DNA of 64,000 nt from a virus: positions 19,392 to 83,391 of the IMG/VR virus record IMGVR_UViG_3300030103_002259; one strand, given 5' to 3'. Positions 8,065-43,136 of the stretch are shown here, one piece after another. Made by a program: the position numbers and the translations under genes. Below the pieces are notes generated by a model that worked only from the letters and a program-made list of their open reading frames with translations, was not told the DNA's origin and searched no databases. Position 1 is the stretch's first letter; each line of letters opens with the position of its first letter.

Positions 8065-11000
8065 TTATAATATAAATGGATATACATTACTTGCATAAAC
8101 AAACCCACCATCATCATATACATATCCGCCTTTCTGATTTCCTTGTATTGGAAGATTACCAGCATTAACACCACCATATCCTGGAGGTGTCCCAGAATTA
8201 CTAACAGATGTAGCACTAGCTTGCAACTTCTCTTTCATCTCTATACACTGTTTTATTTCTGCTTCACTAGTTGCACCTTCATTCTGACATTCTGTTTTTA
8301 ATTCACCATAGCTCTTACGAACAGTTGAACGTTTACCAGTCATATCTCTACCACCTTTAAATGCTAAACTACCTCCATCAGCTGGATTAATATCATACTG
8401 CTCATTCAATGCATTAAGATTCTGTTGCTTCTGTCTATTTGTAATAGCATTTGTATACAGATTTCTTAAGTTAGTTCTAGCAGCTAACTTAGCATTATCA
8501 AACTGTTGATTAGCTACAGTGGTTTGATCATACAAGTTCTGACTTATCTGTTGATTAGTAAGTTGTTCTTGATTTCTGATACCAACCTTTTGTTGCTCAT
8601 TAGCATTAGCAGCAGCTATGTTATTTACGTTATACTGATTTAATGTATCTGCAGCTTGTTTAGCAGCTTGACCTTGTATACTAGCAGCTCTTGCAGATTG
8701 AGCCTGTGCTCCAGCAAACTGACTAATTGCTTGCGTTTGTATATTAGCCTGTTCAGCTTGTGCTGCAAGCTCTCTAGTTGGATCAGCATATATAGCATCA
8801 GGTTCTTCAAGATCTACTCTTGGCGCCCAAGGCATATATTTTTTAATACCCATTAAATCACCAAAGGCTCCAGTAGTTTTAATTGTATCTTGTAGCCACC
8901 ATGGAGCTGGTTCATCTTCTACAAGTATATTTTCATTCTCTTCACATGGTAAACAATCACCTGTTGCAGGGTCCACACCTACATCTATTATACTACCATC
9001 TTTTTTCTCACATGGACATTTCTTTTTATCCTCTTTAGGATCACATGGACATTTACCATTCTCATCTTTTTCCATATAGAAATCACCATTAGGATCATCA
9101 CATTGACAACCATAATCTACACTAGTTGATTTTATACCTGTAAGTTCTCCAGCAGTAGTGTTACCATATACACTTGCATATCTATTACTACCACGCCCAT
9201 TTGGATCTAATTCTTCAGGCTGTACTATACCATCACCATCTAAATCTAAACTTTCAAAATCATCTATAGGAGATACATTAGTACCAAGATAACCTCTCAT
9301 TCCAGTTTCATCTGGATCACCCTCTTGTTGTTGACCCATAAAGTTTCTAATAGCAAATTGTGTATCTGCATCATAACTACTTGCATTATTCATCATATTA
9401 GCATATGCATGAAAACCTGCTTGTTGAGCCGCTCTACTATTTTTACCATCACCTAGTTCACCGCTTCCAGAACCCATTTCTAAAGGTTCACCTATAGCAG
9501 TTGCTATTTGACCTAAAGAAATATTATTAGGATTTACTAAATCACCATTTCTATCACGTCTACCATATTCTTCAGCTATAAACTTTTTAGCTGAATTAAA
9601 TTCTGTTTGAGTAGTTATAGGTGTACCTGTTTCAGGATTTACTATATCCATACCAGAATTTATACGAGCCTCTACATCAGGCCAACTTCTAAAACCTTTA
9701 CCACTATTACTAAATAATACAGGATCAATTTGTTTAGCTTTAAACATCAAGTTCCTTTTCTGCATCTTCATGAACTGTTCAATTCTTTCATCTGGGTTAA
9801 AAGCTCTTAATGATGCTTCATTTGCTGTTTTAGCAGCAGCATTTCTATAACCACGAACATCTGATATTGAATTTTCGTATTCTTTATTAAATTGATCTCT
9901 AATCTTAGGGTCTTTAAAACCTTCTTTTAAAAGATAATATTGAATAGCAGCCGCTTTACCAGAAGGAGTTGTGCCAAAATCAGTACCCATAGTTTCTTCA
10001 TCATAATCAGGAGTAACCCCTGTTTGATATTTACCTATACTTTTGGTACCATCAGCATTAACTCTAATAATTTTTTTTCCGTCTTGATTTGCTTGCCAAG
10101 CTTTTCTTTCATAATCAGGATCATTAACATTAATTTCTACACCATTCTGTGCTTTAGGTATAGATCTACCTACAGAAGCTTTAGGTGTATCATAAAATGG
10201 CATATCATAACCACCCATCATCATACCATACATAGCCATAGGCATACCACCATATTGTTTCTCTGATATTTTTGGCGCATCTATACCATATTGTTCTAAT
10301 CCTTGATAAAATAAATCTAAATCATTAGACCACTCAGTATTATGAGGACCTTCTGTTAAACCTTCTTCCATTAACCTCACAATACCTTGTAAGTGATCGG
10401 GATTATTATAATCTTTTACCAGACAATCTAAGCAAAACTTAAATGTGCCATCAGCATTCATCATATCAGGATCCTGATTCCACATGTCAGGATTATTTAT
10501 AAAGTAATCATACTCTCCTCTAGCATAATCATAAAAACTTTGTGGCTCATCTTGAACTTCAGCTTGTTGTACATCAATGCCATTTTGAGCTCTTAAAATT
10601 CTTCCACCAAAAGACATTGATGGTTGTGCAACAGGAGCTTGATTCATTTCTTCTGCTTCAGCAACATCTTCACTCATCTCACCATCTTCTCCACCACCTT
10701 CTTTTTCTTCAACCTTTTTTGTTAATTGTTGATTTACTGCTTTTAACTGAGGGTTAACAATATCAGCCTCCTCAATATTATAGATTTTTGCAGCGGGCTG
10801 TGCAACAGCAGGTAAACCTTGCGGCATACCTTTCATAGACTCTTGTACTAAAGCTAATTCAGCTAGTTTAAGATTATAATTCTTAATCATTAACTCAGCT
10901 GTTTTTCTTGATAACTGATCTGAATCAGGATCTTCTAAAATTTTTCTATACTTATTAATATCATATTGTTTAGCAATCTTAGCAGGAGTTAAAGATTTTT

Positions 11001-11373
11001 TTTCATTCTTACCAAAACGTTTTAAAAGTTTTGGGTCTTTTACTTTCATTGATCTAGTATCACTATAGATAAAAGTATCATCTGGTAAGCTTAAAGGAAC
11101 ACCACCACTACTATGGCGTGGACCTTTTATTATTTTATGTTCTGGAATACCATCACCATTCAAATCACCAAGTACAGTTTCACCACCTTCAGCCTCAACA
11201 TTAGCCTCATCTCTAGGTACACTAGTTATAAACTTACTTAAACTTAATGCAGGCTGTTGCATAGACTGAGTACTTCGCCCACCCATTGCAGCATTATCAT
11301 TATACAAGCTATAATCTACTTGTTGTCCGACTTTAGCTTTAGGTAATCTTTTTATTCTTACTCTTCTTTTCAT
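8065..11373 (-). CDS. Putative cargo protein with NVEAEGGE...GPRHSSGGV domain, EF-hand-like loop and Gln/Ala coiled coil
   Basis: 1102 aa. Has an EAEGGE and G-x-x-H-x-x-GGV segment of the kind seen in crAss-like cargo proteins, a DLDGDGIVQPEE loop, a Cys cluster and several xQxGG/PKAQxG motifs. Confidence 0.6.
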   Translation of the reverse strand: MKRRVRIKRLPKAKVGQQVDYSLYNDNAAMGGRSTQSMQQPALSLSKFITSVPRDEANVEAEGGETVLGDLNGDGIPEHKIIKGPRHSSGGVPLSLPDDTFIYSDTRSMKVKDPKLLKRFGKNEKKSLTPAKIAKQYDINKYRKILEDPDSDQLSRKTAELMIKNYNLKLAELALVQESMKGMPQGLPAVAQPAAKIYNIEEADIVNPQLKAVNQQLTKKVEEKEGGGEDGEMSEDVAEAEEMNQAPVAQPSMSFGGRILRAQNGIDVQQAEVQDEPQSFYDYARGEYDYFINNPDMWNQDPDMMNADGTFKFCLDCLVKDYNNPDHLQGIVRLMEEGLTEGPHNTEWSNDLDLFYQGLEQYGIDAPKISEKQYGGMPMAMYGMMMGGYDMPFYDTPKASVGRSIPKAQNGVEINVNDPDYERKAWQANQDGKKIIRVNADGTKSIGKYQTGVTPDYDEETMGTDFGTTPSGKAAAIQYYLLKEGFKDPKIRDQFNKEYENSISDVRGYRNAAAKTANEASLRAFNPDERIEQFMKMQKRNLMFKAKQIDPVLFSNSGKGFRSWPDVEARINSGMDIVNPETGTPITTQTEFNSAKKFIAEEYGRRDRNGDLVNPNNISLGQIATAIGEPLEMGSGSGELGDGKNSRAAQQAGFHAYANMMNNASSYDADTQFAIRNFMGQQQEGDPDETGMRGYLGTNVSPIDDFESLDLDGDGIVQPEELDPNGRGSNRYASVYGNTTAGELTGIKSTSVDYGCQCDDPNGDFYMEKDENGKCPCDPKEDKKKCPCEKKDGSIIDVGVDPATGDCLPCEENENILVEDEPAPWWLQDTIKTTGAFGDLMGIKKYMPWAPRVDLEEPDAIYADPTRELAAQAEQANIQTQAISQFAGAQAQSARAASIQGQAAKQAADTLNQYNVNNIAAANANEQQKVGIRNQEQLTNQQISQNLYDQTTVANQQFDNAKLAARTNLRNLYTNAITNRQKQQNLNALNEQYDINPADGGSLAFKGGRDMTGKRSTVRKSYGELKTECQNEGATSEAEIKQCIEMKEKLQASATSVSNSGTPPGYGGVNAGNLPIQGNQKGGYVYDDGGFVYASNVYPFIL

Positions 11374-11374
11374 A

Positions 11375-19447: not shown

Positions 19448-22400
19448 ATTTCCTCTATTGTATAACCTTGTTTTCTTAATTCTTCTACCATATCTTCTGT
19501 AACCTCATCTCCTAATTCTAATACACCACCCTTTTGAAAACCTAAAAGATCACCTCCAGTATTATCTCCATCATTAAATAATTGATCAGCTAAAAAACCC
19601 CTAGTTCCCCATTTAAAAGTATTTTCAAGAAGTGGTTGTAATCCCGCACCTTTTAAACCCGCCTCTAAATTATCTTTGTCTAGCTTTTTATAATTATTAC
19701 TAAACCATTTTTTTCTATATACATTAAGATCTTCTAACGGAACTTTATCTAATAGACCACGATCAATTTTATCAAAAGGAGCTACACCATAATTTTCAAC
19801 ACCACCTACATGATGAGACCAATCATATTTAGATTTATTTGGTAGGTCAGTTTCTACAGCAAATATACCTCTGTAATTATTATTAGGCTCATCACCCTTA
19901 CCAAAAAAAGGAGTATCTACTGTAACACCACTTTTCATTAATATTGGAGCAGGAGCTTTAGCGCCTTTTTGTTTTATTAAATCTTGTAATCCTTTTTTAT
20001 TTCCAATTTTTCTATAGAAATGACTTCCTGGAGTAAGTTCATTTTTAGTAAATGCAGTTAAGGGAGCACTTATTGGATTTTTTATAGCACGACCTATATT
20101 CTTTAGTATAGACCCACCTCTTTGTAATTTAGGTTTATCATTATCATTCATTAAACCAGGTAATGCAAATGGTATTGCTAAACCAGGTAAATATCTAAGA
20201 GCTTGATATTTTTTTTCTTTTGGTACTCCTTTTTTAAAAAATGAATTTAACGGAACTCCTGTACCTTCCATTTCAAGCATGCCATCTAAAGTTGAATTTG
20301 ATGGGTTACGTAATTCACCAAGAGCCCACTCACTTATCCTCTTATCTCTTTCAGCTATATCTAAAGTTTTACCTGTATTAGGATCTACTTTAAAAGCTTC
20401 TTTTACAGTTTTATCATTTGTCCACTCATCATATATTCGTTTTCTAACAACCATTAACTCTGAGTGTAATTCATTAGGAGACCCAATCCAATCTTTATCA
20501 GGCATTACTTCTTTAAAGAACCTACCTATATTAGTATTTTCATTTGGATAAAAGTATCCTTTACCAGAATCAAATTCTGCTAACACATTACCAAACCCTC
20601 TATTTAGCATACCTAATCCTTGAGAAGTATGAGCAGCTTCATGTAAAGCTATATCAGTTATTTCACTACTTGGATATCTATATAAACCTATACCTGGATT
20701 TGTAACTGATAGATTTAAGCTTGATTTATTAACACCAGCTGTATCATTTTGTAAATAGTTTTTAATTAAAAACTTTTTTTCTGGGTCAGTAAATTTACTT
20801 GATAAAATATCTGTAATACCTTGTGGACGTAGTATATTACGTGTTTTAACCAAAGGGTTTTCTAAATTTAAACCTGGTGTGTTGCCACTATATATAAGAG
20901 TATTATCTAAAGTAAGTCCATCACCTAAACCTAAACGACCCAATCCTTCAAAGTCACCACTACCATCACCTCTAAATTCTTGAGCAAAATATTTATCTTG
21001 TCTATTCTGAGGTCCAGAGAACTCAAATATATCTAATATTTTATCTGATATATCTTCTCTTAATATTTTACCAAATTTAGGATCTACTTCATAAAACCAT
21101 TTATCATTAAAATTAACACCTTCTTGTATTGCTAAAGATGCTTCTAAATCTGCAGCTTTTTTTTGGGAAGGTGTCAAAGGTAAAACCTCACCAAAACTTC
21201 TTTCTCCTTTTGTAATATCTTGAATGGCACGTGTAAGACCTTTCTTAGTGTTATCTATCTTATTACTAATAACCTTGCTTGTTAACTTTTTTATACTAGG
21301 CTGCACCTCTTTTACAAGCTTTGCATTTTTTGAGATTTTGTTAATAGCCTTAGATAAAGACGCACCTCTTTGAGCTTTAGGCAACCCTCCATCTTTTAGT
21401 TTTTTCCTTTTATTTCTTTTATCTTCAAATGCAAAAGGTAACCCTAAAGTTAAAGGCAGTAAAGATTTATATATATTAGAATTAGACATATCAAACATTC
21501 CATCATTTCCTATTGCTGATTTAACTCTATTACCAGGTCTATTGTTTATCATAGTTACATTACCAAAGTCATTATACAAAAGAGGATCTCCATCAAAAAC
21601 ATTATTTAACTTAATATTATCAATATCATTTTCTATCATGTACTTCATGATTTTATCAGTTGTTGTTCCTTCTGGAAACTGAGAACGTAAATCTTTTACA
21701 ACATCATTAAGTTCTTTAGCAGTAGAATAGTCTTGTTCACCTAAACGAGGATCAATATCACTAAGATTTAATGAGTCCCAAACTTGATAATTTACATCTA
21801 AATCTGCAGATTTTGATGACATTGGATAGTAAAGTTCATTTACATTTCCCACCAACTTTCCATTTAATGTAGCATATTGTCGTGCTACTTCTCTATCTGT
21901 AGATGTAAAAAGTGGTTGATGAAGATCTTCAAGATTCTTCATAGATCCTCTATATGTAGAACCAGCCCCTTGAGGAAATGCTTTTTTAAAGTTCTTACTC
22001 TGCTGTTGTACAAATTGCTCAGGAGTACCTTTAAATAGACTACCATCTGCATTTTTCATCCAAGTATCATTTTGTTTTGTATTATATTCAATAGCACGAT
22101 ACTCTTCAATTAATGGTTTATTATTAGGTATGTTCTTGTTCCACTTACCCCAATCTATTTGTGATTTAAAATTTTTAACAGGTAGTTTTTTTGCAGCTTT
22201 GGCTAATGCAGCACCAAGTTGAGCTTTAGGTAAATCTTCTACTATGTAACCACCGTCTACATACTTTTGTATTTCTTCATCATCTAATTCAAGTTCTATT
22301 GGACCACCCCTCTGTCTAATTAAATCTAAGTTAGGTTCTGCTGCTTTCCACCATTTTTCTCCAAATGGTATACTAAAAGGTAAGTCAACAAAATGCTCTC

Positions 22401-23820
22401 TTGCACCCAGAGTCCTATTAACACCATCAAAATTTAAAACCCTTCTTGCACCACGTTCATTATCAGGATCAAACACAGAACCTAATTTATCCATTCCACC
22501 TGTTAGCCAATTATCATCTGGTAAATAAGGTTGAAGTTTATTTGAATCTATAAATTGAGCACCAAATCCATGTTGAAGCAAATTACTTATATTCTCTTGA
22601 GTAGTTTTATTTTGATGTAAACCAAGCTGTAAAGGGTTTGTATAATCAAAAAGTTTAAAAGGAACATCTGAAACACTAGTAATTACATCAGGGTTAAGTA
22701 TAACTAGCTCGTTACCACCTATATCTATTACACCATCTATTCCATATTTAGATCTTAATGTTGCTGCCTTTTGTGGAGTCATCCCCATATGCCCACCAAT
22801 ATGCGGACCTGTTGAACGTTCAATAAAATGTACACCAACATCTCTAAGTGCATTAAGAACATACGGATTATTACCACCAACCAACCTAGCATTAGGAGAA
22901 ACTCCTATTTCTTTTATTCTTCCAAGATCAGCTGGTCTACTAGAAGGATCCCTCAGAAGTTTACTTATAGCAAATTCTGTAGGAAGATCATATTTTAGTG
23001 AAGCTTGAGCACCTTGATTTTTATTAAGACCTCCAAAAAAACCATACTCTGTCAATGAATTACCAGGTTTAGTACCAGTTGATGTCCAATCTTTAAATCC
23101 TTTAGGGTCTATTTTTGAACGATCAAATTCAAGATCTTCTAAAGTAAAACCTGGACTTGTTGAACCAACACCGTGATAAAAACTTCCAAGTGGTTCTGTT
23201 AAAAAACCATCATCATCAAATACTAAAGAATCACCCCTTTTTGTTTCAATAACATATGGATTTTCTAAATATTTTTCAATATTTGTTTTAAAAACATCTG
23301 ATGATTGCAGAATCATATCTTGCATGAGAGCTAGTTTTTCCTCTTCTGACTTTCCTAGTATATTAAAACGCCTATCTCTAGTACCACGACTTACATCATC
23401 TGCAGTAATTTCTATTCTATTATCAGTTGTAAGATCAACACCTCTCAATGGAACTTCATATTGACCAGGGTCAAGTTGGTTCTTTAGTAGTCTACCTTGA
23501 CTTTCTTTAATTGCAGATACTATACTAGGTAGCCTTAGTCCATACTTTTTGTAATCTGCAGCGGCCCTTGCTAAAACATCAAGTTCTGCTTTAGATAATA
23601 TCTTTCCACGTCTCAATGCATTTATTCCTTTAAAAGCACCACCACCTTGGAAATATTGAGCATTAGGATTATAAATTCTTCTAGGGCTTGGTTTACTAAA
23701 AAGAGGATTAGGTGCAAATACAGAATTAGTAGCAGATAAACTTTTGCTATATCTTTTAGTTCTGTATTGATCTCTTAGATCTCTATCTATTGCACTTAGT
23801 ACTCTTTTATTATAACTCAT
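19444..23820 (-). CDS. Polyvalent protein with ADP-ribosyltransferase-like modules and an HExxH metallopeptidase-like module
   Basis: 1458 aa. Modules: FYHG..; TYRGS..LFTSTDREVARQYA..VKSAIGNDGMFD..NIY; LHEAAH..PNELHSE; FYRKIG. They are separated by QxGG/LPKAQxG motifs. Confidence 0.65.
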   Translation of the reverse strand: MSYNKRVLSAIDRDLRDQYRTKRYSKSLSATNSVFAPNPLFSKPSPRRIYNPNAQYFQGGGAFKGINALRRGKILSKAELDVLARAAADYKKYGLRLPSIVSAIKESQGRLLKNQLDPGQYEVPLRGVDLTTDNRIEITADDVSRGTRDRRFNILGKSEEEKLALMQDMILQSSDVFKTNIEKYLENPYVIETKRGDSLVFDDDGFLTEPLGSFYHGVGSTSPGFTLEDLEFDRSKIDPKGFKDWTSTGTKPGNSLTEYGFFGGLNKNQGAQASLKYDLPTEFAISKLLRDPSSRPADLGRIKEIGVSPNARLVGGNNPYVLNALRDVGVHFIERSTGPHIGGHMGMTPQKAATLRSKYGIDGVIDIGGNELVILNPDVITSVSDVPFKLFDYTNPLQLGLHQNKTTQENISNLLQHGFGAQFIDSNKLQPYLPDDNWLTGGMDKLGSVFDPDNERGARRVLNFDGVNRTLGAREHFVDLPFSIPFGEKWWKAAEPNLDLIRQRGGPIELELDDEEIQKYVDGGYIVEDLPKAQLGAALAKAAKKLPVKNFKSQIDWGKWNKNIPNNKPLIEEYRAIEYNTKQNDTWMKNADGSLFKGTPEQFVQQQSKNFKKAFPQGAGSTYRGSMKNLEDLHQPLFTSTDREVARQYATLNGKLVGNVNELYYPMSSKSADLDVNYQVWDSLNLSDIDPRLGEQDYSTAKELNDVVKDLRSQFPEGTTTDKIMKYMIENDIDNIKLNNVFDGDPLLYNDFGNVTMINNRPGNRVKSAIGNDGMFDMSNSNIYKSLLPLTLGLPFAFEDKRNKRKKLKDGGLPKAQRGASLSKAINKISKNAKLVKEVQPSIKKLTSKVISNKIDNTKKGLTRAIQDITKGERSFGEVLPLTPSQKKAADLEASLAIQEGVNFNDKWFYEVDPKFGKILREDISDKILDIFEFSGPQNRQDKYFAQEFRGDGSGDFEGLGRLGLGDGLTLDNTLIYSGNTPGLNLENPLVKTRNILRPQGITDILSSKFTDPEKKFLIKNYLQNDTAGVNKSSLNLSVTNPGIGLYRYPSSEITDIALHEAAHTSQGLGMLNRGFGNVLAEFDSGKGYFYPNENTNIGRFFKEVMPDKDWIGSPNELHSELMVVRKRIYDEWTNDKTVKEAFKVDPNTGKTLDIAERDKRISEWALGELRNPSNSTLDGMLEMEGTGVPLNSFFKKGVPKEKKYQALRYLPGLAIPFALPGLMNDNDKPKLQRGGSILKNIGRAIKNPISAPLTAFTKNELTPGSHFYRKIGNKKGLQDLIKQKGAKAPAPILMKSGVTVDTPFFGKGDEPNNNYRGIFAVETDLPNKSKYDWSHHVGGVENYGVAPFDKIDRGLLDKVPLEDLNVYRKKWFSNNYKKLDKDNLEAGLKGAGLQPLLENTFKWGTRGFLADQLFNDGDNTGGDLLGFQKGGVLELGDEVTEDMVEELRKQGYTIEEI

Positions 23821-26800
23821 TACCTTTGTGATAATTGATTCTTACTATTAACTATTTTCATTATCATATTAATATCATTACACTCTTTTCTTGTCAATGT
23901 TATAAAGTTAGTATAATGTCTGAATTTTTTTCTTTGAAGTTCAGATTTATTATAATCTAAGTTAGATTGATTAAGAACTCTAGTGTAACCATTTTGAGAT
24001 GTCACCCAAGTATTTTCAGAAGCATAGTTACCTTGTAGTATTGTAGTACCAGGTATTACTGACCCTGTTGGTGGATAACTAGAACCTATTGGAAACTCCG
24101 CTCTATCTTTAGTAATATCCCAGAATTGATTTATTCTATACTTCTGCTCTTCTTTAGTAAATAAAACATCATATGAAGATAAGTTATCAGCCAACTTAGG
24201 ATACTTCATAGATTCTACAATATTATTTTTAGGATAAAGATTTAAATTTAAATACCCAGAAACTTGTTCTGAATTATAAATAACTGCTTGATCAAAATTA
24301 TAATCTAATACATGATGTTGATCAATACAATTACTCTCCTTTCTTCTATAACATTCTAATATATAAGTTAAAGATCTTAAGGTAACTACATTTTGTCCCG
24401 TAAGCGAAGGTATCTCAACTTCAAACCCATATTGTTTACCATAGTAATTACAAAAACTATTACACAAGTAGTTATGTCTCCATAAACCATCTTTCTTTGT
24501 AGAAATAAAATAATCTTTAGTACCAAAATTAAGATCTGGATGCCAATCATGATAGCTAACAAAGAAATTACTTTTTGGATCATAACTAACTGTCCAAGAA
24601 GCATCCTCAAAAATTCTTTCATCTCCTAGTCTATATTGAGTATTTTTATTTTCATCTACAGAAAAATAATCACCTGTACCATCTGAATTTAAAGGTATAT
24701 ATTTAGTTCTTCCTTTATACTCATCTTTTAAATAGTAGTCAGTTTTACAGAAGTATAACATTGTACTTGTATTACCATAGATTGCTTGACATCCTATACC
24801 AGCTACTGGGTTATCTATATAAGGGTATTCTGGAAAATCTTCAGTTAGCTTATATGGCATAAATAATGTAAACCACCACTTTAATCCTGAGTTAGAAATT
24901 TCAGTTAAACCTTGACCATAAGAAAATATTTTCCCCTGATCTTGACTCATATAAAATATACCCACTGGAGTAGATATTACAGATAACCTACTTTGACATG
25001 AACCGTACTCATATGGTAAATCTGCTGATGAAACATTTTGTTGTGGCTGACTAAACAAACCACCATCACCTATAGTAATCTTTGTACCTAAATCAGTTTG
25101 TAGTGTATCAACACCTTGATACATTATTGGAGATTCATTTTTAAACGTAATAAAAATACCACTATCGTTTATTGACTTGACACTATTTATTTGACTTTTA
25201 AAAGACTTATAGTTATTAATTAAATAAATAAACCAACTATCTTTTACAGATTCATCTTGAACAGGTAAAGAATAAATTAACCTATCAGGAAAATATGTAA
25301 AACATAAGTTTGCAACAGAAGGATCATACGTTCTAGCTTGTAAAAATCCTTGTGAGAAATATTGATTATATAATTTAGATATACTCAAGGAATAGTCATA
25401 TCTATAATCTGTACTTTGACCGATAACATTGGGGTTAATATTAAACATAGCCCTATAGTCTGTATACCTATACGGATTATAATGTTTTCTACCAACCTCC
25501 TCTGCTTGTGATCTAAAGTCTGTAAGAACATCTGTTTCAACAAAGAAATCTCTTATGCCTGAGTTAGCTAAATAAAAGTAAGCTTGTTTAATTGAAAATA
25601 CGCCCTTTTCCTTATCTTGAAAAATACCTAGAATACCTGAAGGTTTTCTTTTATCATCTGTATAACTATAAAATCTATTATTATTAACTCTATAGTCTAA
25701 ATTAAAAAAAGCATTAGGTAATGCACCCTCACCTACAACATCATCAGCAAATATATTGAATGATTCTTTTAAATCACCAACATCATATTTCTTACTATTA
25801 ATTGCAAACCTAGCGTCTGGAATTTGATCTCTTAAGAAATAATTAAACTCAAAATCATCTGGTTGATTATATAACCAATCATAGAAAAATAACATATTAT
25901 TTTTTTCTGTATATCTAGTTACATAAGTATCACCTCCAAAAAATAAATCAGTACTTGTAATTCGTTTATAATAATATACTATGTTATCAATTGGACAAAA
26001 ATATTCTAAATCTAAAGGCGGTGTTTCTGATAGCTTTTGTTCACAAGGTGAAATAATAACCTGTTTAACAGAATCTAATTGACCATATTGATTTCTAATT
26101 CTAGACCTTAGAGCTCCATATTGACTAGCAATGGGTAAACCAAAAGCATTTCTAGGATTTTCAAAAGTTGGTAATTTTCCATCACTTGGTATTAGAGGAC
26201 TATTACTATTTTGTACTAGTGTGCCCAAAGTGACTAATGATGAATCTTTTTCTCCTAACAACTTTGGTCCAATATTAACACCTTCAGAAAATGCTGGATT
26301 AAAAAATGGCCCTGATTTAGTTCTAAGAGTAACTGTCTCAGGTCTTTTTAAATTATTAATAGTATAGTTTTGATACAACCCTAATTGATTTTGATAAGTA
26401 GGAACCTCTTGAAAATTATTTTTTATGTAAAAACCATCATCTAATTTAAATCTATATAAGTCAGTAAACTCAGGAGGGTTCATATTAGAATAAAAACCAT
26501 GACTTATCTGTTGTAAAGCAAACTGTCTTTTGGGTGTAAAAGCATATATTAATTCTAAAGTAGCACTTGCACCTTCTGAAAAATAATATGCTATATGATT
26601 TATAGCACCAAGAGTTTTAGCTAACGGTCCTAAGTATGTCCAAGCAGGTAGCTCTACATTAACTGTAGTGTAAGGCACTGTTGTTGCACCAGTTAATGCA
26701 AGGGGAGCCATCGCAGCATAAAATGAGGCATCAATAGCTGCCATACCTGGAGCTTCATATGGCGGAAATAAACTTACTAGAGAATCAGCTGCACCTGCGG

Positions 26801-29222
26801 CACTTGAATGATATGCTTGCAAAAGAATATTTCTAGCTGTTACAGCGGCAATAACACCAGCTTGACCACCTATGTATGTAGCAGATGATACACCAAGAGC
26901 ATCTCCTGGTAAAGAGCCTGATGTAAATTCTTGTTTTCTTTCTGTTTTTTTACCCATTAAAGATAAAGTAACTGCAGCAAGACCAGCAACTATTATTGGT
27001 ATCAAGGCAGCATTAGTAATCATTCTAAATTCAGGATGATCACTTGGTTCTATAAACTGTTGTGTACTAATACCAGATATGTGACCGTATAGTTTAAACT
27101 CAGTTGTATTTAATTGAGGATTTCTAAAAGTAGTTTCTGGTGAATGAAATGTAAATATATCAGTAGGTATTTGTTGATTAATTACATCATCTTCATCATT
27201 AGTATTTTTAATATATGGATCATTAAATCTAAAATTATGATCTGAAATATTATTAGAATGTCCTAAAGGAAGTATTGAATTAAAAGGATAATTAGGATAT
27301 AAACCAGTCTGGCCCTTTTTAACACTACCCTTAAACTTAAAAGTTCTAAAGTTATTTACCATACCTTTAGCAAGTATAGATTTGTTACCTTCTCTAGAAC
27401 CTCTCAATATTTCATACCCAACTATACCAGGTATATCATTACCATTTTGATCTTTAGGTAAAATAATATTTTCAAAATATACCCCTAACAATCTTATTTT
27501 AAAATCATTACCATTATTTAATGGATCAGGATTTGGTTTAAAATGAGAAACAACATCAGAACTACTATTTAATATAAAGTCTTCAGGAAATTTATGATGT
27601 CTAATGTATTTACCACAAAGGTCAAAACTACCATTTTGAGCTGGCCCAGTAGTCCAACAATATTCACTAGGGTTCCATATATCAGGTCTATTTTTAGAAT
27701 ACTTTTCAGTAGACTCCCAATAGCCCATATCTCCTACTGCAATCACTGTACCTCCATCTTCTGTTGTTGAACCAACTAAAGGTCCTGTAGTAATAGACGC
27801 AGTGTTTTTTACCTCAAATGCTTTATCATCATCAGTTAATGAATTTTGATCAGATATGATTTCATCTTCTAAAACTGTTTGTGTTACCCCATTAGAATCA
27901 ACATATTGAATTTCTCTAGGAGCTCTTCCTGGAATATGATACGAAGAAGATTTATCTCCTGTATCATAGACCCACCTTATATAAAAAGTATAAACCTCGT
28001 CTCTTAAGTAATTACCTTTATTACCACCTTTATCATAATAATTACCTGGATATTCTACTGAAGCCCACTTAGCTTTAATCATATTAGCTAAAGGTTGGTA
28101 ATTAAAATCAAATCTTGATCTAGGACCTACTCTAAGTAAATAACCATTTGCATCTGTCATTTGATCTGTTGTCTCAAATACAGGAGTTACAACTGGCAGC
28201 TGTTCAAGCGGAATTGATACTAAACTAGCATTAATTTGATCTACACTAATTCTTTCTACAGTGGTAGAATAAAAACCTAGTTGTACAGCTACAGTACCTT
28301 GATTAACATTTTGTACTAACACACATACAAACTCATCAAAGTTTTCCGTATCGGCCTTTACATTTATTTGTAAGGATCCTGATAAGTCATTTACATTATA
28401 AACAAATTGATTATTACTTTGAGAAAAATAATCTGTTACTTTTTGACCTTTTATAGTATATGCTATTAAAGCAAAGTAAGTACCATTAGCTATTGTACCA
28501 CCAGTATCACCTAGCTCAATAGATAAACATGGTGTCTCCATAAGCCTAGCTAATCTTGCTTTATCACAATCTAAAACATTAGTATTTTTACATATTTCAC
28601 AATCATTAACTTCTTCACATTCCTCAACCCATTGAACTCCAGGCCATAAAAACTCTACGTCTGTGCCATTACTATAATAATTATTACCTATATAATTATA
28701 AGAAGAATCAGGCCAAGAAGCATCATCACCAATATTTAAAAATCTGTCTGGATTATTACCATCTGCCCAATATACTTGCCAGCTACAATCTTCTTTTTCT
28801 CTAGAAGAACCTGATATAAGATAGCGTTTATCAAACTTTAAACATGCATCCTGAACAATTACTCTATATGTACAGCTGTCTGTTTCAAATAAACCTATTT
28901 CAGAATCTATAGGTCTACCAGATATATCATGACCTGCTGTATAAATAACCCACTTATCACTAAATAAATGTATACCACCTATTATATGTTTTTCTGTAAC
29001 CTCAGCAGGCATAGTTCTACCTGTAACACCGCATAAGTAATTAGATGATTCATTTGAAATAGTTCCAAGATCTCCTTCTATAGTACTACTAGTAGCATTT
29101 ATAGCATGAGTCCACATACCTTCAGTAACATATGAAGGTTCTGAATCTTTATTAAGACCTTTTACAAATGAATTTGTAACATCTTGAGATACATTTTGTA
29201 AACCAGAGTTCTTCTTAGCCAT
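23820..29222 (-). CDS. Tail muzzle / stabilization protein (P22 gp10-like, crAss-type)
   Basis: 1800 aa, beta-rich. N-terminal FVKGLNKD, YLRDEVYTFYIRW, GGDTYV, W-T-V-S-Y...HDWHP near the C-terminus. Lies directly after the ring genes, as in crAss-like phages. Confidence 0.75.
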   Translation of the reverse strand: MAKKNSGLQNVSQDVTNSFVKGLNKDSEPSYVTEGMWTHAINATSSTIEGDLGTISNESSNYLCGVTGRTMPAEVTEKHIIGGIHLFSDKWVIYTAGHDISGRPIDSEIGLFETDSCTYRVIVQDACLKFDKRYLISGSSREKEDCSWQVYWADGNNPDRFLNIGDDASWPDSSYNYIGNNYYSNGTDVEFLWPGVQWVEECEEVNDCEICKNTNVLDCDKARLARLMETPCLSIELGDTGGTIANGTYFALIAYTIKGQKVTDYFSQSNNQFVYNVNDLSGSLQINVKADTENFDEFVCVLVQNVNQGTVAVQLGFYSTTVERISVDQINASLVSIPLEQLPVVTPVFETTDQMTDANGYLLRVGPRSRFDFNYQPLANMIKAKWASVEYPGNYYDKGGNKGNYLRDEVYTFYIRWVYDTGDKSSSYHIPGRAPREIQYVDSNGVTQTVLEDEIISDQNSLTDDDKAFEVKNTASITTGPLVGSTTEDGGTVIAVGDMGYWESTEKYSKNRPDIWNPSEYCWTTGPAQNGSFDLCGKYIRHHKFPEDFILNSSSDVVSHFKPNPDPLNNGNDFKIRLLGVYFENIILPKDQNGNDIPGIVGYEILRGSREGNKSILAKGMVNNFRTFKFKGSVKKGQTGLYPNYPFNSILPLGHSNNISDHNFRFNDPYIKNTNDEDDVINQQIPTDIFTFHSPETTFRNPQLNTTEFKLYGHISGISTQQFIEPSDHPEFRMITNAALIPIIVAGLAAVTLSLMGKKTERKQEFTSGSLPGDALGVSSATYIGGQAGVIAAVTARNILLQAYHSSAAGAADSLVSLFPPYEAPGMAAIDASFYAAMAPLALTGATTVPYTTVNVELPAWTYLGPLAKTLGAINHIAYYFSEGASATLELIYAFTPKRQFALQQISHGFYSNMNPPEFTDLYRFKLDDGFYIKNNFQEVPTYQNQLGLYQNYTINNLKRPETVTLRTKSGPFFNPAFSEGVNIGPKLLGEKDSSLVTLGTLVQNSNSPLIPSDGKLPTFENPRNAFGLPIASQYGALRSRIRNQYGQLDSVKQVIISPCEQKLSETPPLDLEYFCPIDNIVYYYKRITSTDLFFGGDTYVTRYTEKNNMLFFYDWLYNQPDDFEFNYFLRDQIPDARFAINSKKYDVGDLKESFNIFADDVVGEGALPNAFFNLDYRVNNNRFYSYTDDKRKPSGILGIFQDKEKGVFSIKQAYFYLANSGIRDFFVETDVLTDFRSQAEEVGRKHYNPYRYTDYRAMFNINPNVIGQSTDYRYDYSLSISKLYNQYFSQGFLQARTYDPSVANLCFTYFPDRLIYSLPVQDESVKDSWFIYLINNYKSFKSQINSVKSINDSGIFITFKNESPIMYQGVDTLQTDLGTKITIGDGGLFSQPQQNVSSADLPYEYGSCQSRLSVISTPVGIFYMSQDQGKIFSYGQGLTEISNSGLKWWFTLFMPYKLTEDFPEYPYIDNPVAGIGCQAIYGNTSTMLYFCKTDYYLKDEYKGRTKYIPLNSDGTGDYFSVDENKNTQYRLGDERIFEDASWTVSYDPKSNFFVSYHDWHPDLNFGTKDYFISTKKDGLWRHNYLCNSFCNYYGKQYGFEVEIPSLTGQNVVTLRSLTYILECYRRKESNCIDQHHVLDYNFDQAVIYNSEQVSGYLNLNLYPKNNIVESMKYPKLADNLSSYDVLFTKEEQKYRINQFWDITKDRAEFPIGSSYPPTGSVIPGTTILQGNYASENTWVTSQNGYTRVLNQSNLDYNKSELQRKKFRHYTNFITLTRKECNDINMIMKIVNSKNQLSQR

Positions 29223-29223
29223 A

Positions 29224-30252
29224 TCACACTACATTTGTATTATTACGTCTTCTAAATGAATTAGCTGGTGCATATGATGAAAACATATCATAGTATCTAG
29301 CATATTGAGCTTTTCTATTAGCTTTCCAAATTTGTTTAATTTCTGCAAAGTTTGGTGTATTAACAAAACTTAATGCTTGATTTCTTGCAGCTCTTAAATC
29401 ACCCATAATTAATTGTAATCTTTGAGCAACGTTTTCACCATTCAAAGCTAAATTTTCTAATATTCTTTTCTTAAATGCATACTCATAATATTCATTTAAA
29501 AGTTCATGATCAGGAACAAGTAAGTTTCCATCATCATCTACCAAATCTCCTTGATAATTTATGTATACAAAACCTTCATCAAAACTTGTATATAAAAAAC
29601 CATGTTTAATATAACCTTCATTAGGAGCATTATAATATACATTAGGTGAATCACAGTCTACATTTTGACTCACCTTCATATGCAAAGGTGTCAATGTAGT
29701 ATACTTTCTAATATTACTTTGATTAATGACTTGAATTAGCTCATAAGACTCACCTTTACAGTTCATAAAAACTCTAGGTTTAGTTAATGCATCTCCATAA
29801 GGTTGATTAGGATCATGTGTTAAACATGTACCCAAGTTTCCCTTATCATCACAACACGGAGTAGGTTCAGAAGTATCACAAGGATCTGGTACTTGAGCTG
29901 GAAAATCATCATATGTTTCAGGAATTCTTCCATCAGTGATTTTTACTTCATGCATATTAGTACCACCAGCAAAGCCATCATAACCTACAACGCTATGATA
30001 ATCACCACAAACTAAACCATAGTTAAAAACCTTAAAGTCTTCAGGCAACCTTACCTTACCGTGACAAACTTCTAAAATAGTTTCTCTTTGTTGATTAATT
30101 CTAAAACCTAATTCAAAATTTAGCTTTCGTGCTAATTTAATTAGTGTTTGAGGTTCAATCATATTCTCTAGAGCAAATGTATTCATGTCTATTGATACAT
30201 CTTCTAATAGTTGATCAAAAGTTCTATATTTAAGTGTATAATTAAAATCCAT
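29224..30252 (-). CDS. Tail ring / tubular protein (P22 gp4-like)
   Basis: GFLYTSFDEGFVYINYQG...DDDGNLLVPD segment, immediately upstream of the muzzle gene. Confidence 0.7.
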   Translation of the reverse strand: MDFNYTLKYRTFDQLLEDVSIDMNTFALENMIEPQTLIKLARKLNFELGFRINQQRETILEVCHGKVRLPEDFKVFNYGLVCGDYHSVVGYDGFAGGTNMHEVKITDGRIPETYDDFPAQVPDPCDTSEPTPCCDDKGNLGTCLTHDPNQPYGDALTKPRVFMNCKGESYELIQVINQSNIRKYTTLTPLHMKVSQNVDCDSPNVYYNAPNEGYIKHGFLYTSFDEGFVYINYQGDLVDDDGNLLVPDHELLNEYYEYAFKKRILENLALNGENVAQRLQLIMGDLRAARNQALSFVNTPNFAEIKQIWKANRKAQYARYYDMFSSYAPANSFRRRNNTNVV

Positions 30253-30923
30253 TATCTAAGTGCGTTTTGACCATCATCTAGGTTATCTTGTGGAACCTGC
30301 ATGGTTGTTGTAAATTCTTTGACTACCATTTGTTCAATCTCTGAAAATAAGTATTCAGGAAAAGGTAAAGGTTGATCTTGTCTTACCTTACACTTTAAAT
30401 CTTCATCACATTGAAATGGGGATATATCATCATCAAATACAGCCTCTACTCTAATAGCATCCCAATCAACATTAGGTAGATATAGATAACCATCTAAGTA
30501 CCAGAAGTAAGGCCTTTTGTTATATTTAAATGTTGTTGATTTAGCAATTGATGTCCAAGTACCTGGATCCGTTCTATATACTTCTATAGAGCTATCAATA
30601 GAAGATACTGTACGTATAATTGGACCAAATAAACCATCAAAAATATCTGGTAATTTTTCTTTAGTTCTTTTAAAATAACATCCAGAATATACACCCATGC
30701 ACCCAGCCTCTACCTTATCTACATCAATAAGTTCCATCATTGGTAGTACAGTAAATATAGAACTTACTCTCATAAGCCTATATTGATTATCTTCTCTTTT
30801 TAAAAGAGTTTTACCGTACTTAATTATTGAATAATATAAAGTTCTATCAGTTAGAAAAGGATCCTCCTTAACTGCTTTTAGTGTATTTCTTACTCTTGAT
30901 ATTGATTCTCCTATTGTTGTCAT
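30252..30923 (-). CDS. Tail ring protein
   Basis: MTTIGE..., YFWYLDGYLYLPN, C-terminal P-x-D-N-x-D-D. Translationally coupled to both neighbours. Confidence 0.6.
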   Translation of the reverse strand: MTTIGESISRVRNTLKAVKEDPFLTDRTLYYSIIKYGKTLLKREDNQYRLMRVSSIFTVLPMMELIDVDKVEAGCMGVYSGCYFKRTKEKLPDIFDGLFGPIIRTVSSIDSSIEVYRTDPGTWTSIAKSTTFKYNKRPYFWYLDGYLYLPNVDWDAIRVEAVFDDDISPFQCDEDLKCKVRQDQPLPFPEYLFSEIEQMVVKEFTTTMQVPQDNLDDGQNALR

Positions 30924-39883: not shown

Positions 39884-40378
39884 TTAAATTCTTGATCTAT
39901 AGCGTTTTGTTTTACCGTCTCTATATATTTTTTCTTTTCTAACCCCTCTTGTTTTACCTCTATTATTAGTTCTAGATCTTGATGACATTTCTGAACTTGA
40001 AATTAAATTACCAGCTTTATCATACGTCCTAAAGTCATCAGTAATTTTTTCTTTTGATCTTGATCTTGTATTATCTCTTCTATTAGTTCTAGACTTTATA
40101 TTTCTATAATAACTATCATCATTTGTAGTATAACCACCTTTATTTTCACCTGTAAAATTGGTTATTTTAGATTTACCTATACCCGTTCTTGTAAGTTCAG
40201 ATTTTCTTCTAGTACCTCTTCTATTAGTATTACCACTTCTATCTTCAACGGTATTCATCTCTCTATTACTTTCAACTTGACCACTCCAGGTACCTCCTTG
40301 CTGAAGCATAGGTTTTGGCTTTTGTCTAGATTCTCTAAAGAATCTTAAAACTTCTGTAGGGTTAGCTTTATTTTTCAT
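39884..40378 (-). CDS. Arg/Lys-rich protein with LQQGG motif and internal SRTNxRG repeats
   Basis: Likely start is MKNKANP at 40378, downstream of the promoter motif at 40456. RTNRR/RTNNRG-type repeats. Confidence 0.65.
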   Translation of the reverse strand: MKNKANPTEVLRFFRESRQKPKPMLQQGGTWSGQVESNREMNTVEDRSGNTNRRGTRRKSELTRTGIGKSKITNFTGENKGGYTTNDDSYYRNIKSRTNRRDNTRSRSKEKITDDFRTYDKAGNLISSSEMSSRSRTNNRGKTRGVRKEKIYRDGKTKRYRSRI

Positions 40379-40455
40379 AGTTATTTTAATAATCCCAGTA
40401 AATAAAGATTTGATCATTCTCTTCTTCTGGATCTTTAAAAGTTTTGTTCATATAT

Positions 40456-40468
40456 CAATATACAAAAA
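40456..40468 (-). promoter_or_regulatory. Putative promoter motif TTTTTGTATATTG
   Basis: Variant copy in the only sizeable gap of the basic-protein array. Confidence 0.5.
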
Positions 40469-40756
40469 TTAGCAATTCCATTTACGTAGAGATTTGTTAA
40501 TTCTTGAATTAGGATCATTCTTTTTCTTAGATCCTGTCATCTTCTTTTTCATACCTGACATTCTAGCACAAAAACTTTTTCTTCTCTTAGCAGCTTTACT
40601 ATTTTTTTTAAGTTTAGAAGGTTTTGTTGTAACAGCAGTTTTAAGTTTACTTCCAGGGTTAGCCTTTCTGTAAGAAGCAACACCTTTTTTATTTAAGCCA
40701 CCTGACTTACTTTTACCTTCCTTCCTAGTCCAAGCTGGAGTTTTTTTAGTTGCCAT
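40469..40756 (-). CDS. Small basic phage protein (DUF6321-like)
   Basis: PAWTRKEGK..GGLN.KG..SY...RRKSFCARM...DPNSRINKSLRKWNC is a family I recognise from aquatic phages. Confidence 0.7.
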   Translation of the reverse strand: MATKKTPAWTRKEGKSKSGGLNKKGVASYRKANPGSKLKTAVTTKPSKLKKNSKAAKRRKSFCARMSGMKKKMTGSKKKNDPNSRINKSLRKWNC

Positions 40757-40772
40757 AATTTAAAACATTCTT

Positions 40773-41399
40773 TTAAAATCGTAATTTTCTTTTAACTTTA
40801 TTTTTAATTCTTTTTAGTTTAGCTTTAACTTTACCGTTACCGCCAATATTCAAGCCGTTACCACTACGTTTTGGACCAGACATACATTTACCCTTAACTA
40901 CCTTACCACCTCTACAACCACCACCTCTAACTGCAGCACCTCCTAGTTGCATATACTGACCACCTAATTTTTGTTCTTTAATGTCATTAAAATACCCTAG
41001 TACTGCTGCGGGGTTTGTCATATTACCACCCATTTGCATTTTGCTTCTAATTTTTTTAGAATTCTTTTTAAAAGATTCAGTATCAGCCATTTTAGGAGAT
41101 GGACCTAAACCTGACTTTCCATAAACCATTTTTATAGCCTTAGTTTTTATAGGATCCTTTAATGTTTTACGTTTTTTACCCATTGGTCTAGCTATAGACA
41201 TACCCATCTGAGCTTTAGGTAATTTAGGTTTAGTGTGACCATAACCCTTCTTTTTCATACGGGTATGATCAGCCATAACTTTTGCTTTATAACCCTTTCC
41301 TGTTTTAGGATCATACATCATATGAGGTTTAAACTTCTTCTTAGCAGCACTCTTTTTAGCACCACCTTTACTATATAAACTTTTTGGCATTGTATTCAT
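40773..41399 (-). CDS. Lys/Gly-rich basic protein with multiple xQxGG motifs
   Basis: Motifs YSKGG, LPKAQMG, MQMGG, QKLGG and MQLGG, plus a KFKPHMMYDPKTGKG module. Confidence 0.7.
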   Translation of the reverse strand: MNTMPKSLYSKGGAKKSAAKKKFKPHMMYDPKTGKGYKAKVMADHTRMKKKGYGHTKPKLPKAQMGMSIARPMGKKRKTLKDPIKTKAIKMVYGKSGLGPSPKMADTESFKKNSKKIRSKMQMGGNMTNPAAVLGYFNDIKEQKLGGQYMQLGGAAVRGGGCRGGKVVKGKCMSGPKRSGNGLNIGGNGKVKAKLKRIKNKVKRKLRF

Positions 41400-41668
41400 T
41401 ATTTTCTTTTTTTAGTTGTTTTTCTTTTTCTAACTGAACTAGTTCTATTACCCATACCAACTCTTTTCTTTTCAGCAACAACAGAAGCTTTTCTAGAACC
41501 TAAACCGCCCCATGTCACTGGAGTTTTTTTAGAAACTTTTTTGCTAGGTCTACATTTTTTGACGGCTTTATTCTTAGAGGATCCGCACTTATTGCCTTTT
41601 TCATCAGTCCACTTTTCTTTGAACCAACGTTTTAATGCTGCACCTTTAGCTGTCTTTCTAACCGCCAT
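41399..41668 (-). CDS. Small basic phage protein (LKRWFKEKW family)
   Basis: LKRWFKEKW..G.KCG...KCRPSKKVSKKTPVT; DUF5872-like by recollection. Confidence 0.6.
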   Translation of the reverse strand: MAVRKTAKGAALKRWFKEKWTDEKGNKCGSSKNKAVKKCRPSKKVSKKTPVTWGGLGSRKASVVAEKKRVGMGNRTSSVRKRKTTKKRK

Positions 41669-41877
41669 TATCTTTTCTTTTTGCTCTTACCAGCTTTTCT
41701 TTTTCTACACTTAGCAATCATACCACTAGCATAAGCAGAAGGAAATACTTTATGAGCTCTTTTAGCTGCATAGTAACAAGAGTCTTTTTTACTCTTAGTT
41801 TTTTTCTTTTTAGATCCTCCTTTTCTAAAGAATTCTAAAATTTCACCGTCCGTATTTATTCTACTATAATTAGGCAT
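41668..41877 (-). CDS. Small basic phage protein (KDxCY...FPSAYASG family)
   Basis: KDSCYYAAKRAHKVFPSAYASGMIAKCRK; DUF5872-like by recollection. Confidence 0.6.
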   Translation of the reverse strand: MPNYSRINTDGEILEFFRKGGSKKKKTKSKKDSCYYAAKRAHKVFPSAYASGMIAKCRKRKAGKSKKKR

Positions 41878-41879
41878 AA

Positions 41880-42068
41880 CTATAAGCTTCTTCTTAATGA
41901 GGCACCTCTGATAACTTTACCTTTGCCACATGAGCCACCATACTTTAATTGTTGTCCTTGAATAGTTCTTGGATTATTACTATATCTAGCCATAGTCTTA
42001 CCTGGGTAAGGATTTTGACCTCCATTTTTCATTTTGTGGGCACCGCCACATTTCATACATTTTGGCAT
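41880..42068 (-). CDS. Small basic protein with xKxGG motifs and C-terminal SLRRS
   Basis: MKCGG, MKNGG, LKYGG and GASLRRSL. Confidence 0.65.
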   Translation of the reverse strand: MPKCMKCGGAHKMKNGGQNPYPGKTMARYSNNPRTIQGQQLKYGGSCGKGKVIRGASLRRSL

Positions 42069-42078
42069 ATCTTATATT

Positions 42079-42381
42079 TTATTTATTTTTTATACTTCTT
42101 CTTAGTGATCCACCTTTAATTAATTTTGGTTTAGATTTATTACTTGATTTAGGAGATCGTGATACTTCATATAATACTGTACCATAAGGATCTGTCTCTA
42201 AAATCTTATATTGTACGTCTGTGATACCTCTTTTTTTAAGAGCACGTCTTCTTGCATTATAAGCACTTCTACTAGGCGCCACTCTCTTACCCAAAACAGG
42301 TGAATAATCTTTACTTTTCTTAGCCGCTTTCTGAACTGCTTTAGCTATACCACCTTTCTGATATTTTGTAAGGTGTTTCAT
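42079..42381 (-). CDS. Small basic protein, YQKGG...GGSLRRS paralog
   Basis: Starts KYQKGGIAKA and ends KGGSLRRSIKNK. Confidence 0.7.
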   Translation of the reverse strand: MKHLTKYQKGGIAKAVQKAAKKSKDYSPVLGKRVAPSRSAYNARRRALKKRGITDVQYKILETDPYGTVLYEVSRSPKSSNKSKPKLIKGGSLRRSIKNK

Positions 42382-42383
42382 AA

Positions 42384-42764: not shown

Positions 42765-42766
42765 AG

Positions 42767-43135: not shown

Positions 43136-43136
43136 C

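Follow-up and report, generated by a model that had tools for sequence, protein, structure and literature searches.

For crAss-like phages, which rank with the most abundant viruses known, it is an open question how podoviruses with large protein cargo pack dozens of big proteins into head and tail and later pass them in a useful order through a narrow channel. A window of 64,000 nucleotides from one of them (bases 19392-83391 of the 83.4-kb IMG/VR virus record IMGVR_UViG_3300030103_002259, with an estimated completeness of 70%) gives the question a concrete form. Within a block of large cargo genes, three consecutive proteins end in a similar acidic tag, and the protein encoded after each of them starts with a short basic leader. 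The original prediction for this stretch held that tags and leaders pair like the docking domains of polyketide synthases and nonribosomal peptide synthetases (PKS/NRPS), chaining the cargo in gene order, or else that they all bind a common receptor such as the portal or scaffold. We find that tags and leaders are very probably two sides of one conserved junction module of polyvalent cargo proteins, shared by a large uncultured marine crAss-like clade. The module recurs in 1033 protein clusters and belongs to no Pfam family, and offers a concrete handle of ∼26 residues on the cargo-loading question.

The minus strand carries all long genes of the window, and its translations place GG-preceded acidic tags at the C-termini of P0004, P0003 and P0002, at the sites where they had first been noticed. 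The P0004 tag, GGVLELGDEVTEDMVEELRKQGYTIEEI (residues 1431-1458; 19447..19530, minus strand), marks a junction type termed J1, which also occurs in the related loci L030 and L031; a local hidden Markov model (HMM) recognizes it with an independent E-value (iE) of 2.8e-10. The P0003 tag, GGSVETELTQKEIDNLVKQGYIVEDM (residues 1426-1451; 15095..15172, minus strand), marks junction type J2 and is matched with an iE of 1.4e-18. P0002 ends in a diverged subtype that marks J3, GGYMDQFEENGEYELSEELIEYLLANGVELDFI (residues 1187-1219; 11378..11476, minus strand); the local HMM matches it with an iE of 1.7e-8, but this tag was itself an HMM seed. The subtype is conserved independently in 15 related loci and was aligned in 16 sequences (alignment A4). 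A fourth acidic stretch, noticed earlier inside P0004, proves to be the same element as the terminal tags. This internal junction module, RGGPIELELDDEEIQKYVDGGYIVEDLPKAQLG (residues 504-536; minus strand), combines RGG, the acidic helix element and LPKAQLG (iE 7e-13), and spans 22213..22311, one base beyond the end first assigned to it. Separately, P0003 residues ∼308-335 (VEGGYDADLELIEAQKMLDAGMTL) look by eye like a degenerate fifth copy, with no HMM support.

The basic starts of the downstream proteins are equally real, translation giving MKKYRITALP for P0003, MKKRVKIYKSP for P0002 and MKRRVRIKRLP for P0001. The P0003 leader, MKKYRITALPRMQNGG (residues 1-16; 19400..19447, minus strand), has a start codon that overlaps the P0004 stop, and its residues M1, K2, K3, Y4, A8, L9, P10, M12, Q13, G15 and G16 are invariant in 14 sequences. 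The P0002 leader, MKKRVKIYKSPDNKGAYINKTKKFLSKFQMGGG (residues 1-33; 14936..15034, minus strand), is conserved and always N-terminal in the loci that have the motif. That of P0001 (residues 1-32; 11278..11373, minus strand) consists of a basic strand, MKRRVRIKRLPKAKVG, followed by ..AAMGG, and opens a conserved N-terminal region of ∼130 residues (alignment A3, 16 sequences, 56% mean column identity).

The tags constitute one conserved, helix-containing element of ∼26 residues with the consensus hEhEL-TxEEIxxY-xxGGYhVEEh, in the order extended, helix, extended. Searches with P0003 alone or with the muzzle protein P0005 alone gave no related loci; alignment A1 of the P0003 family gave 40 loci in IMG/VR. 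In these loci and our genome together, the local HMM found 39 tags, 19 at the extreme C-terminus and 20 internal, corresponding to 34 unique tags (17 C-terminal and 17 internal). Profile A2 was built from 33 of the 34 unique tags of the window and related contigs, the P0002 tag being omitted as too diverged. Across six frames of the 83-kb genome at E<=0.1, A2 matches only 3 sites, which are the three A2-type tags, the internal module of P0004 among them at 41622-41714 of the whole genome. Searched against 1.84 billion proteins, the profile retrieved 1033 cluster representatives at E<=0.001, 387 of them at E<=1e-10 and 15 at E<=1e-30, and the best 150 of the 1033 have 2-7 matched stretches per protein. 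Cargo open reading frames (ORFs) are the only tag carriers in the genomes that were searched whole, namely this one and two relatives.

Both ends of P0003 are held unusually constant. A search with the whole protein gave 16 proteins, including 13 full-length homologues at 32-68% identity. All 13 keep the leader MKKY[KR][IV][TA]ALP[KR]MQxGG, and 12 end in the tag GG[SF][IV]E[TAS][ED]L..KEI..L.KQGY[IV][IV]E[DE]x; the sole homologue without the tag, P0019, comes from a 5.2-kb contig and may be cut short. Column conservation in alignment A1 is 0.89 for the leader, 0.84 for the SET cassette and 0.78 for the tag, as against 0.46 for the remaining body; only 15 of 1436 windows are conserved equally or better than the leader window and 89 of 1426 than the tag window. 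This conservation acts on the peptide and not on the DNA, since codon sharing stays near the expectation from codon usage: identical tag residues use the same codon at a frequency of 0.616 between sources (expected 0.576) and 0.569 within a source (expected 0.584). These statistics rule out a DNA-level recombination joint as the main cause of tag conservation. AlphaFold2 run on A2 returned a confident local fold (mean predicted local distance difference test score, pLDDT, 82.9; 17 of 36 residues >=90; residues 11-36 at 87-94 by blocks of ten), with one helix at residues 20-29 flanked by two extended stretches.

Comparison with known families gave little. Pfam at E<=1 returned no common family for the 33 tags, only 11 weak families each hitting 1-2 of the 33. 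Among PDB sequences the best match to A2 was an 18-residue stretch of phytanoyl-CoA dioxygenase (E 0.037), which we judge to be chance, and a Foldseek search of the PDB with the single-tag model gave 0 matches at E<=0.001, although at 36 residues the model is too short for this to be informative. P0025 gave a weak DUF7210 hit at its C-terminus (E 5e-5, below the cut-off) that did not recur with the tags. By tblastn, neither the tag nor P0025 nor P0001 matched GenBank phages, and P0003 matches them through its SET part only (Cellulophaga phages phi17:2 and phi4:1); the GenBank phage collection yielded no cultured relative.

The internal copies reveal what the tag belongs to. On the representatives, tag positions, linkers and enzyme modules were counted in the best 150 of the 1033, a set biased to multi-copy proteins. 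It holds 358 tags, 232 internal and 126 C-terminal, and 126 of its 150 proteins end in a tag. The stretch that follows the tag was analysed for the 353 of 358 tags that could be anchored; after 230 internal tags it reads S[VI]P[SE]L[TN]x[AM][QK]xG(G) in 107 cases, [YF]QxGG in 50 and LPxAQxG in 29, with another GG within 10 residues in 15 and none of these in 29. The internal copy of P0004 has a linker of the LPKAQxG kind. By eye, the N-leaders of split genes look like this linker preceded by Met and basic residues, as in MAKYR-ITSIPQSLPKAQRGG of locus L031, MKKYR-ITALPRMQNGG of P0003 and MLRRVR-IKSVPKARTG of P0001 relatives. From this resemblance, tag and leader look like one module cut by a gene boundary, and not like independently evolved partners.

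The complete module thus runs from [aromatic]-Q-x-G-G through the acidic element of ∼26 residues to the linker, S[VI]PxL..AQxG(G) or [YF]QxGG. It is mostly internal and lies between exchangeable enzyme modules. In relatives, tags bracket VanY, SLT/lysozyme, Amidase_2, ART-PolyVal and SET modules, and tag-bearing proteins carry Amidase_2, ART-PolyVal, SET, SLT, PG_binding_1 and VanY domains. Since the tags bracket enzyme modules, we count the cargo proteins among the polyvalent proteins of Iyer et al. 2017 (PMC5512222), who describe, in the passages covered here, large virion-associated proteins with shuffled, unrelated effector modules (SET, ART-PolyVal, lysozyme/SLT, amidase, VanY). In our phage P0003 has a SET domain and is encoded beside the muzzle and ring genes, and relatives have multiple enzyme domains. 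The module is not described in those passages, and the word ‘linker’ has 0 occurrences in that paper. Nor was it found in the literature searched on crAss-like cargo and polyvalent proteins, as far as the main text covered goes; supplementary material such as the gp45 peptide maps of PMC10172136 may bear on cutting. Because the junction module marks the edges of SET, ART, lysozyme and amidase effector modules, it makes module borders in cargo proteins easier to annotate.

At three conserved sites in this phage, one gene stops and the next begins precisely where the acidic element gives way to the linker. Such a boundary splits the module, so that the upstream protein ends in the acidic element and the downstream one opens with Met and 3-5 basic residues, followed by a linker-like leader. 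PKS/NRPS docking domains are short complementary C-terminal and N-terminal elements that fix the order of consecutive subunits, and they are terminal by definition. The likeness lies in the short complementary elements that end one protein and open the next, and that would fix subunit order here as well. However, half or more of the copies of the acidic element are internal (17 of 34 unique tags, and the majority within the best-150 set), which speaks against the proposed PKS/NRPS-like terminal docking domains, and Pfam scans of P0001-P0004 and of 33 tags (E<=1) matched no docking-domain family.

The association of tags and leaders on neighbouring genes, by which the original prediction was to be tested, does hold. 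Adjacent pairs were counted among ATG-started ORFs of at least 150 residues with gaps of -60 to 150 nucleotides (nt) in the 40 loci and this genome, identical pairs being counted once. The 232 unique pairs divide into 30 with both tag and basic leader, 0 with the tag only, 2 with the leader only (loci L008 and L037) and 200 with neither; the J1 pairs of L030 and L031, in which both sides are present by eye, fell below the HMM and regular-expression thresholds and are among the ‘neither’. A basic-leader gene follows 18 of the 18 C-terminal tags that have a downstream gene. Shared descent explains much of the count, since no more than three conserved junction types make up the 30 pairs. J1 joins P0004-like to P0003-like genes with an overlap or a 2-nt gap; J2, leading to P0002-like genes, has a gap of 46-59 nt; and J3 joins P0002-like to P0001-like genes, mostly over 2-10 nt (1 nt in this genome, 106 nt in L032). 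J3 stays split even in a distant clade (L006, L009-L011 and L034), where ..GGELEVDNDTLAALIAAGADIEML is followed by MAKIRLKKLPDGF.. with different residues and the same charge pattern. J2 and J3 leaders were seen at N-termini only and never fused, and the strand-type leader is never found on the first cargo protein. Mean net charge over the first 10 residues is +4.2 at 26 split junctions, as against -0.5 after 229 fused tags and +0.8 (standard deviation 1.6) in 197 other ORFs. By eye, acidic and hydrophobic residues take turns along the last strand of the tag, as do basic and hydrophobic ones along the leader.

What, then, does the acidic element do? We tentatively favour, at somewhat less than even confidence, the view that a partner inside the particle reads it as a junction or anchor handle; this is the second option of the original prediction, a common receptor. 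The acidic helix would persist as an uncut handle at each joint, to be read at the protein level by a common partner such as the ring proteins, portal or muzzle. It would thereby anchor and order the cargo string for loading and ejection, and the adjacency of tags and leaders on neighbouring genes would stem mainly from where genes have split rather than from a dedicated docking pair. Consistent with this view are the real tag family, the sharing of internal and terminal copies, the conserved linker, selection at the peptide level, the confident AlphaFold2 fold and the lack of a detected protease.

The suggestion of an uncut handle draws by analogy on crAss001, the one crassvirus solved so far, in which helical pieces of the first cargo protein gp45 are held beside aromatic-x-GG motifs, and on the presence in our phage of R1, R2 and muzzle proteins. 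According to the parts of Bayfield et al. 2023 (PMC10172136) covered here, gp45 residues 214-245 are bound on the tail-barrel ring proteins R1/R2 in 12 copies, an unassigned 14-residue helix segment lies beside the muzzle in 6 copies, and residues 425-552 are bound on the portal. The A[FY]GG motifs of gp45 at 209-210, 263-264, 427-428 and 562-563 adjoin the resolved pieces, and the modelled domain 425-552 spans the GG at 427-428. The aromatic-x-GG type motifs of gp45 (locus L046, 5988-8516) are AYGG at 209, AEGG at 263, AFGG at 332 and 427, and AYGG at 562, at borders of the segments resolved by cryo-electron microscopy in that work. This pattern suggests that cultured crassviruses, too, follow the GG joint grammar, in a dialect of their own.

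P0004 and gp45 are alike in being the first gene after the muzzle gene and in encoding a long protein; in the part of the structure paper covered, gp45 places short helical segments on ring and muzzle proteins and a compact domain on the portal. In contrast, gp45 segment 214-245 has a net charge of 0, and gp45 and gp46 lack the acidic-tail and basic-head junction. Homology of P0004 to gp45 was not seen, as P0004 has no Pfam family at E<=0.01 and the tag profile is absent from crAss001, although no direct pairwise comparison was run. Because that profile is absent, crAss001 offers a parallel in position and shape and not a case of homology. A second comparison is with the T4 capsid targeting sequence and encapsulin cargo-loading peptides, short conserved terminal peptides that send unrelated proteins into an HK97-fold shell, the T4 peptide being removed later. 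Unlike these, the element described here is repeated inside proteins, sits at joints and not on every cargo protein, and has ∼26 residues with a helix.

Several observations weigh against an uncut handle with a common receptor. At E<=1, profile A2 has no match in crAss001 or in Cellulophaga phage phi17:2. The last protein of the chain, of P0001 type, is never tagged in relatives, which is odd if every unit needs an anchor. A common receptor leaves the basic new N-termini unexplained, given the charge of split junctions relative to that found after fused tags. AlphaFold2 on a natural two-tag tandem (alignment A5, 3 rows; mean pLDDT 60.8) gave one helix per tag, a linker below 50, no strands and no pairing, and is too weak to tell whether tags pair. 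Finally, the conserved Q-x-G-G on both sides of the tag looks, from its sequence, like an enzyme recognition site.

This last resemblance leads to the alternative that the module is a processing cassette. A maturation protease would cut at Q-x-G-G on both sides, and the acidic element and the N-leaders would be spacers or pro-peptides that might, before removal, direct proteins to the head in the manner of the T4 capsid targeting sequence. Processing at GG sites has precedents in adenovirus, African swine fever virus and double-glycine leader systems. Of 50 ORFs, 10 contain Q.GG, with 28 occurrences in all; the four cargo proteins together with five small basic ones account for 27, and the remaining 40 ORFs have 0. 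P0002 alone has 9, where ∼1.2 are expected. The concentration of 27 of 28 in cargo and small basic proteins makes Q.GG a mark of internal virion proteins, and it agrees with cutting, as do the positions of the motifs at module borders and 15-59 residues from N-termini. Likewise, cassettes that carry the motif at their borders, for example GGNVSWNFKGK...LPK, travel from protein to protein, and proteolytic processing of polyvalent proteins is proposed in the covered passages of Iyer et al. 2017 (PMC5512222).

The enzyme itself was not detected. Pfam and PHROGs scans found no protease in 40 of the 50 ORFs of this 70%-complete genome. In five relatives that are 91-100% complete, Peptidase_C48 (PF02902), C39 (PF03412), S78 and ClpP gave 0 of 5 with valid controls; S77 (PF03420) and C5 (PF00770) also gave 0 of 5, but their controls were void, PF03420 matching no control genome either. 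Such searches leave room for a novel or host protease. A cleavage cassette would be free to decay after a gene split, yet both halves are conserved, and GG sites in tandem, separated by 5-8 residues as in YGGIPEFQKGG, would be strange in a cutting code. Furthermore, the crAss001 domain 425-552 includes the GG at 427-428, and its authors regard gp45 as a single chain that reaches from the tail to the capsid; in PMC10172136 ‘cleav*’, ‘proteoly*’ and ‘protease’ have 0 occurrences. On balance we consider cutting unlikely, if the most serious competitor of an uncut handle.

One candidate enzyme lies within the cargo itself. P0004 residues ∼937-1196 (window ∼20230-21010) form a module with a HEAAH zinc-binding-like motif and no Pfam match. 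Iyer et al. 2017, in the passages covered, propose a zincin-like MPTase domain as the processing enzyme of polyvalent proteins (PMC5512222). Here, by contrast, none of the other 40 loci has the HEAAH module (1 of 41 sources), and it is present in 1 of the best 150 of 1033 tag-bearing representatives, which makes it an optional cargo module. As a general processing enzyme it was rejected, and its optional nature counts against cutting.

A more doubtful alternative retains the head-to-tail docking of the original prediction at split junctions only. The acidic amphipathic last strand of the tag (EVEYL, YIVEDM) would pair with the basic first strand of the next protein (RVRIK, KRVKIYK) to give a non-covalent string in gene order. 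Co-occurrence that is complete in one direction, the absence of tags from the last protein of the chain and of strand-type leaders from the first, and a basic charge specific to split junctions all agree with such pairing. So do the rank of both termini among the best-conserved stretches of the P0003 family and the maintenance of the J3 split and its charge pattern in the distant clade. The pairs, however, represent three orthologous junction types and not independent events, and most tag copies are internal, with no separate chain that needs docking. No tertiary contact is implied by these internal copies, because the fused tag runs directly into the linker without a basic strand. L008 and L037 retain the leader though the upstream protein lacks a tag, and the basic leaders MKKYQKGG and MKHLTKYQKGG stand at the start of small basic proteins, the protein upstream having a basic tail and no acidic tag. 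A complex prediction for the P0001-family N-terminus (A3, 140 residues) with the P0002-family C-terminus (A4, 60 residues; 16 rows each, without controls) scored 0.17 against a mark of 0.32 and was weighed neither way.

The J2 genes are moreover separated by a conserved hairpin and an A/T-rich box, a possible transcript boundary that also argues against docking. The 57-nt J2 spacer (15035..15091, minus strand; alignment of 15 loci) has the inverted repeat AAACTT(4-5 nt)AAGTTT directly after the stop codon and the box AAATTTA[GT]TATATT[AT]A ∼15-25 nt before the start codon. To judge from these motifs, it looks like a terminator hairpin plus a promoter-like element within the cargo block.

If the split halves did bind, they would make a natural ‘non-covalent polyprotein’. 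We think it improbable that the cargo forms one ordered string, covalent at internal modules and held by a non-covalent acidic-basic strand zip at split ones, rather as natural split proteins find their other half by charge, in which J1, J2 and J3 would be an address code for loading or ejection order, or would each seat on a different tail-barrel ring.

Least probable of all, and in our judgement very unlikely, is that the module has no dedicated function, being a generic flexible linker or DNA-level recombination joint whose terminal tags are leftovers of gene fission: modules do shuffle between proteins and gene boundaries do fall inside the module, yet codon sharing stays near what codon usage predicts, which argues against a DNA joint, leftovers should decay whereas leader and tag outrank the protein body in conservation across a family of 1033 clusters, and AlphaFold2 predicts confident local structure and not a floppy linker.

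The tagged genes stand in a crassvirus setting. The assignment to crAss-like phages follows from Pfam, which identifies a crassvirus major capsid protein (45161-46774), the ring proteins R2 (30252-30923) and R1 (29224-30252) and, immediately downstream of them, the muzzle protein P0005 (1800 residues; 23820..29222; PF25731 crAss_MUZ, E 2e-12), whose gene is on the minus strand. The closest GenBank matches of the muzzle protein, at 24-28% identity, are from Leptolyngbya phage Lbo-JY46, a gut crAss-like phage and Cellulophaga phages phi17:2 and phi4:1. Its gene opens the cargo block, in which P0004, P0003, P0002 and P0001 follow in the position of the crAss001 cargo genes; P0004 begins at the end of the muzzle gene, 23820, and the same gene order recurs in at least 30 related loci.

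All four cargo genes are on the minus strand. The first, P0004 (1458 residues; 19444..23820), has one internal and one C-terminal tag and no basic leader. P0003 (1451 residues; 15092..19447) contains the SET cassette (Pfam SET, E 9.5e-6, residues 694-738), P0002 (1219 residues) spans 11375..15034, and P0001 (1102 residues; 8065..11373), the last protein of the tagged chain, ends in ..YPFIL without an acidic tag. Packing is tight: the P0003 start overlaps the P0004 stop (gap -4), P0003 and P0002 are 57 nt apart, and P0002 and P0001 1 nt. The gene after P0001 (4226-8005) has no leader, an arrangement also seen in relatives.

Several further features of these proteins stand out. Most of P0024-P0173 (the best 150 of 1033) open with a shared N-terminal module, M[YSG]NKK.L...KAKAP.KPKDII.DP.GQW, of which the P0004 start, MSYNKRVLSAIDRDL.., is a diverged form; it is probably a signature of the first cargo protein after the muzzle gene. 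A beta-rich cassette of ∼40 residues in P0003, GGNVSWNFKGKSYSGTLIPGMEDENNRYARTHNGKIKTLPK (residues 753-795; window ∼17060-17190), recurs in the otherwise different proteins P0021, P0022 and P0023, always with GG on one border and LPK..G on the other. In the P0001 family, residues 1-140 (window ∼10950-11373) are strongly conserved across distant clades, with the stretches VPREEANLEAEGGETV, GPRHSxGGVP and LPDDSFIFSDT and no Pfam family; the stretch GETHEKGGV in gp041 of Cellulophaga phage phi17:2 resembles this region.

Outside the cargo block, the five small Q.GG proteins (window 39884-44033) are very basic, with isoelectric points (pI) of 10.8-12.0; they start with MKKYQKGG or MKHLTKYQKGG and end in ..KGGSLRRSKKH. 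Between the putative portal and capsid genes, a 431-residue protein (46805-48100; pI 4.7) without a family match has a very acidic N-terminal third and a basic tail, ..RRTTRKKQTVPRKKQNMFSRGF. It is a scaffold-like candidate and a possible partner of the basic leaders.

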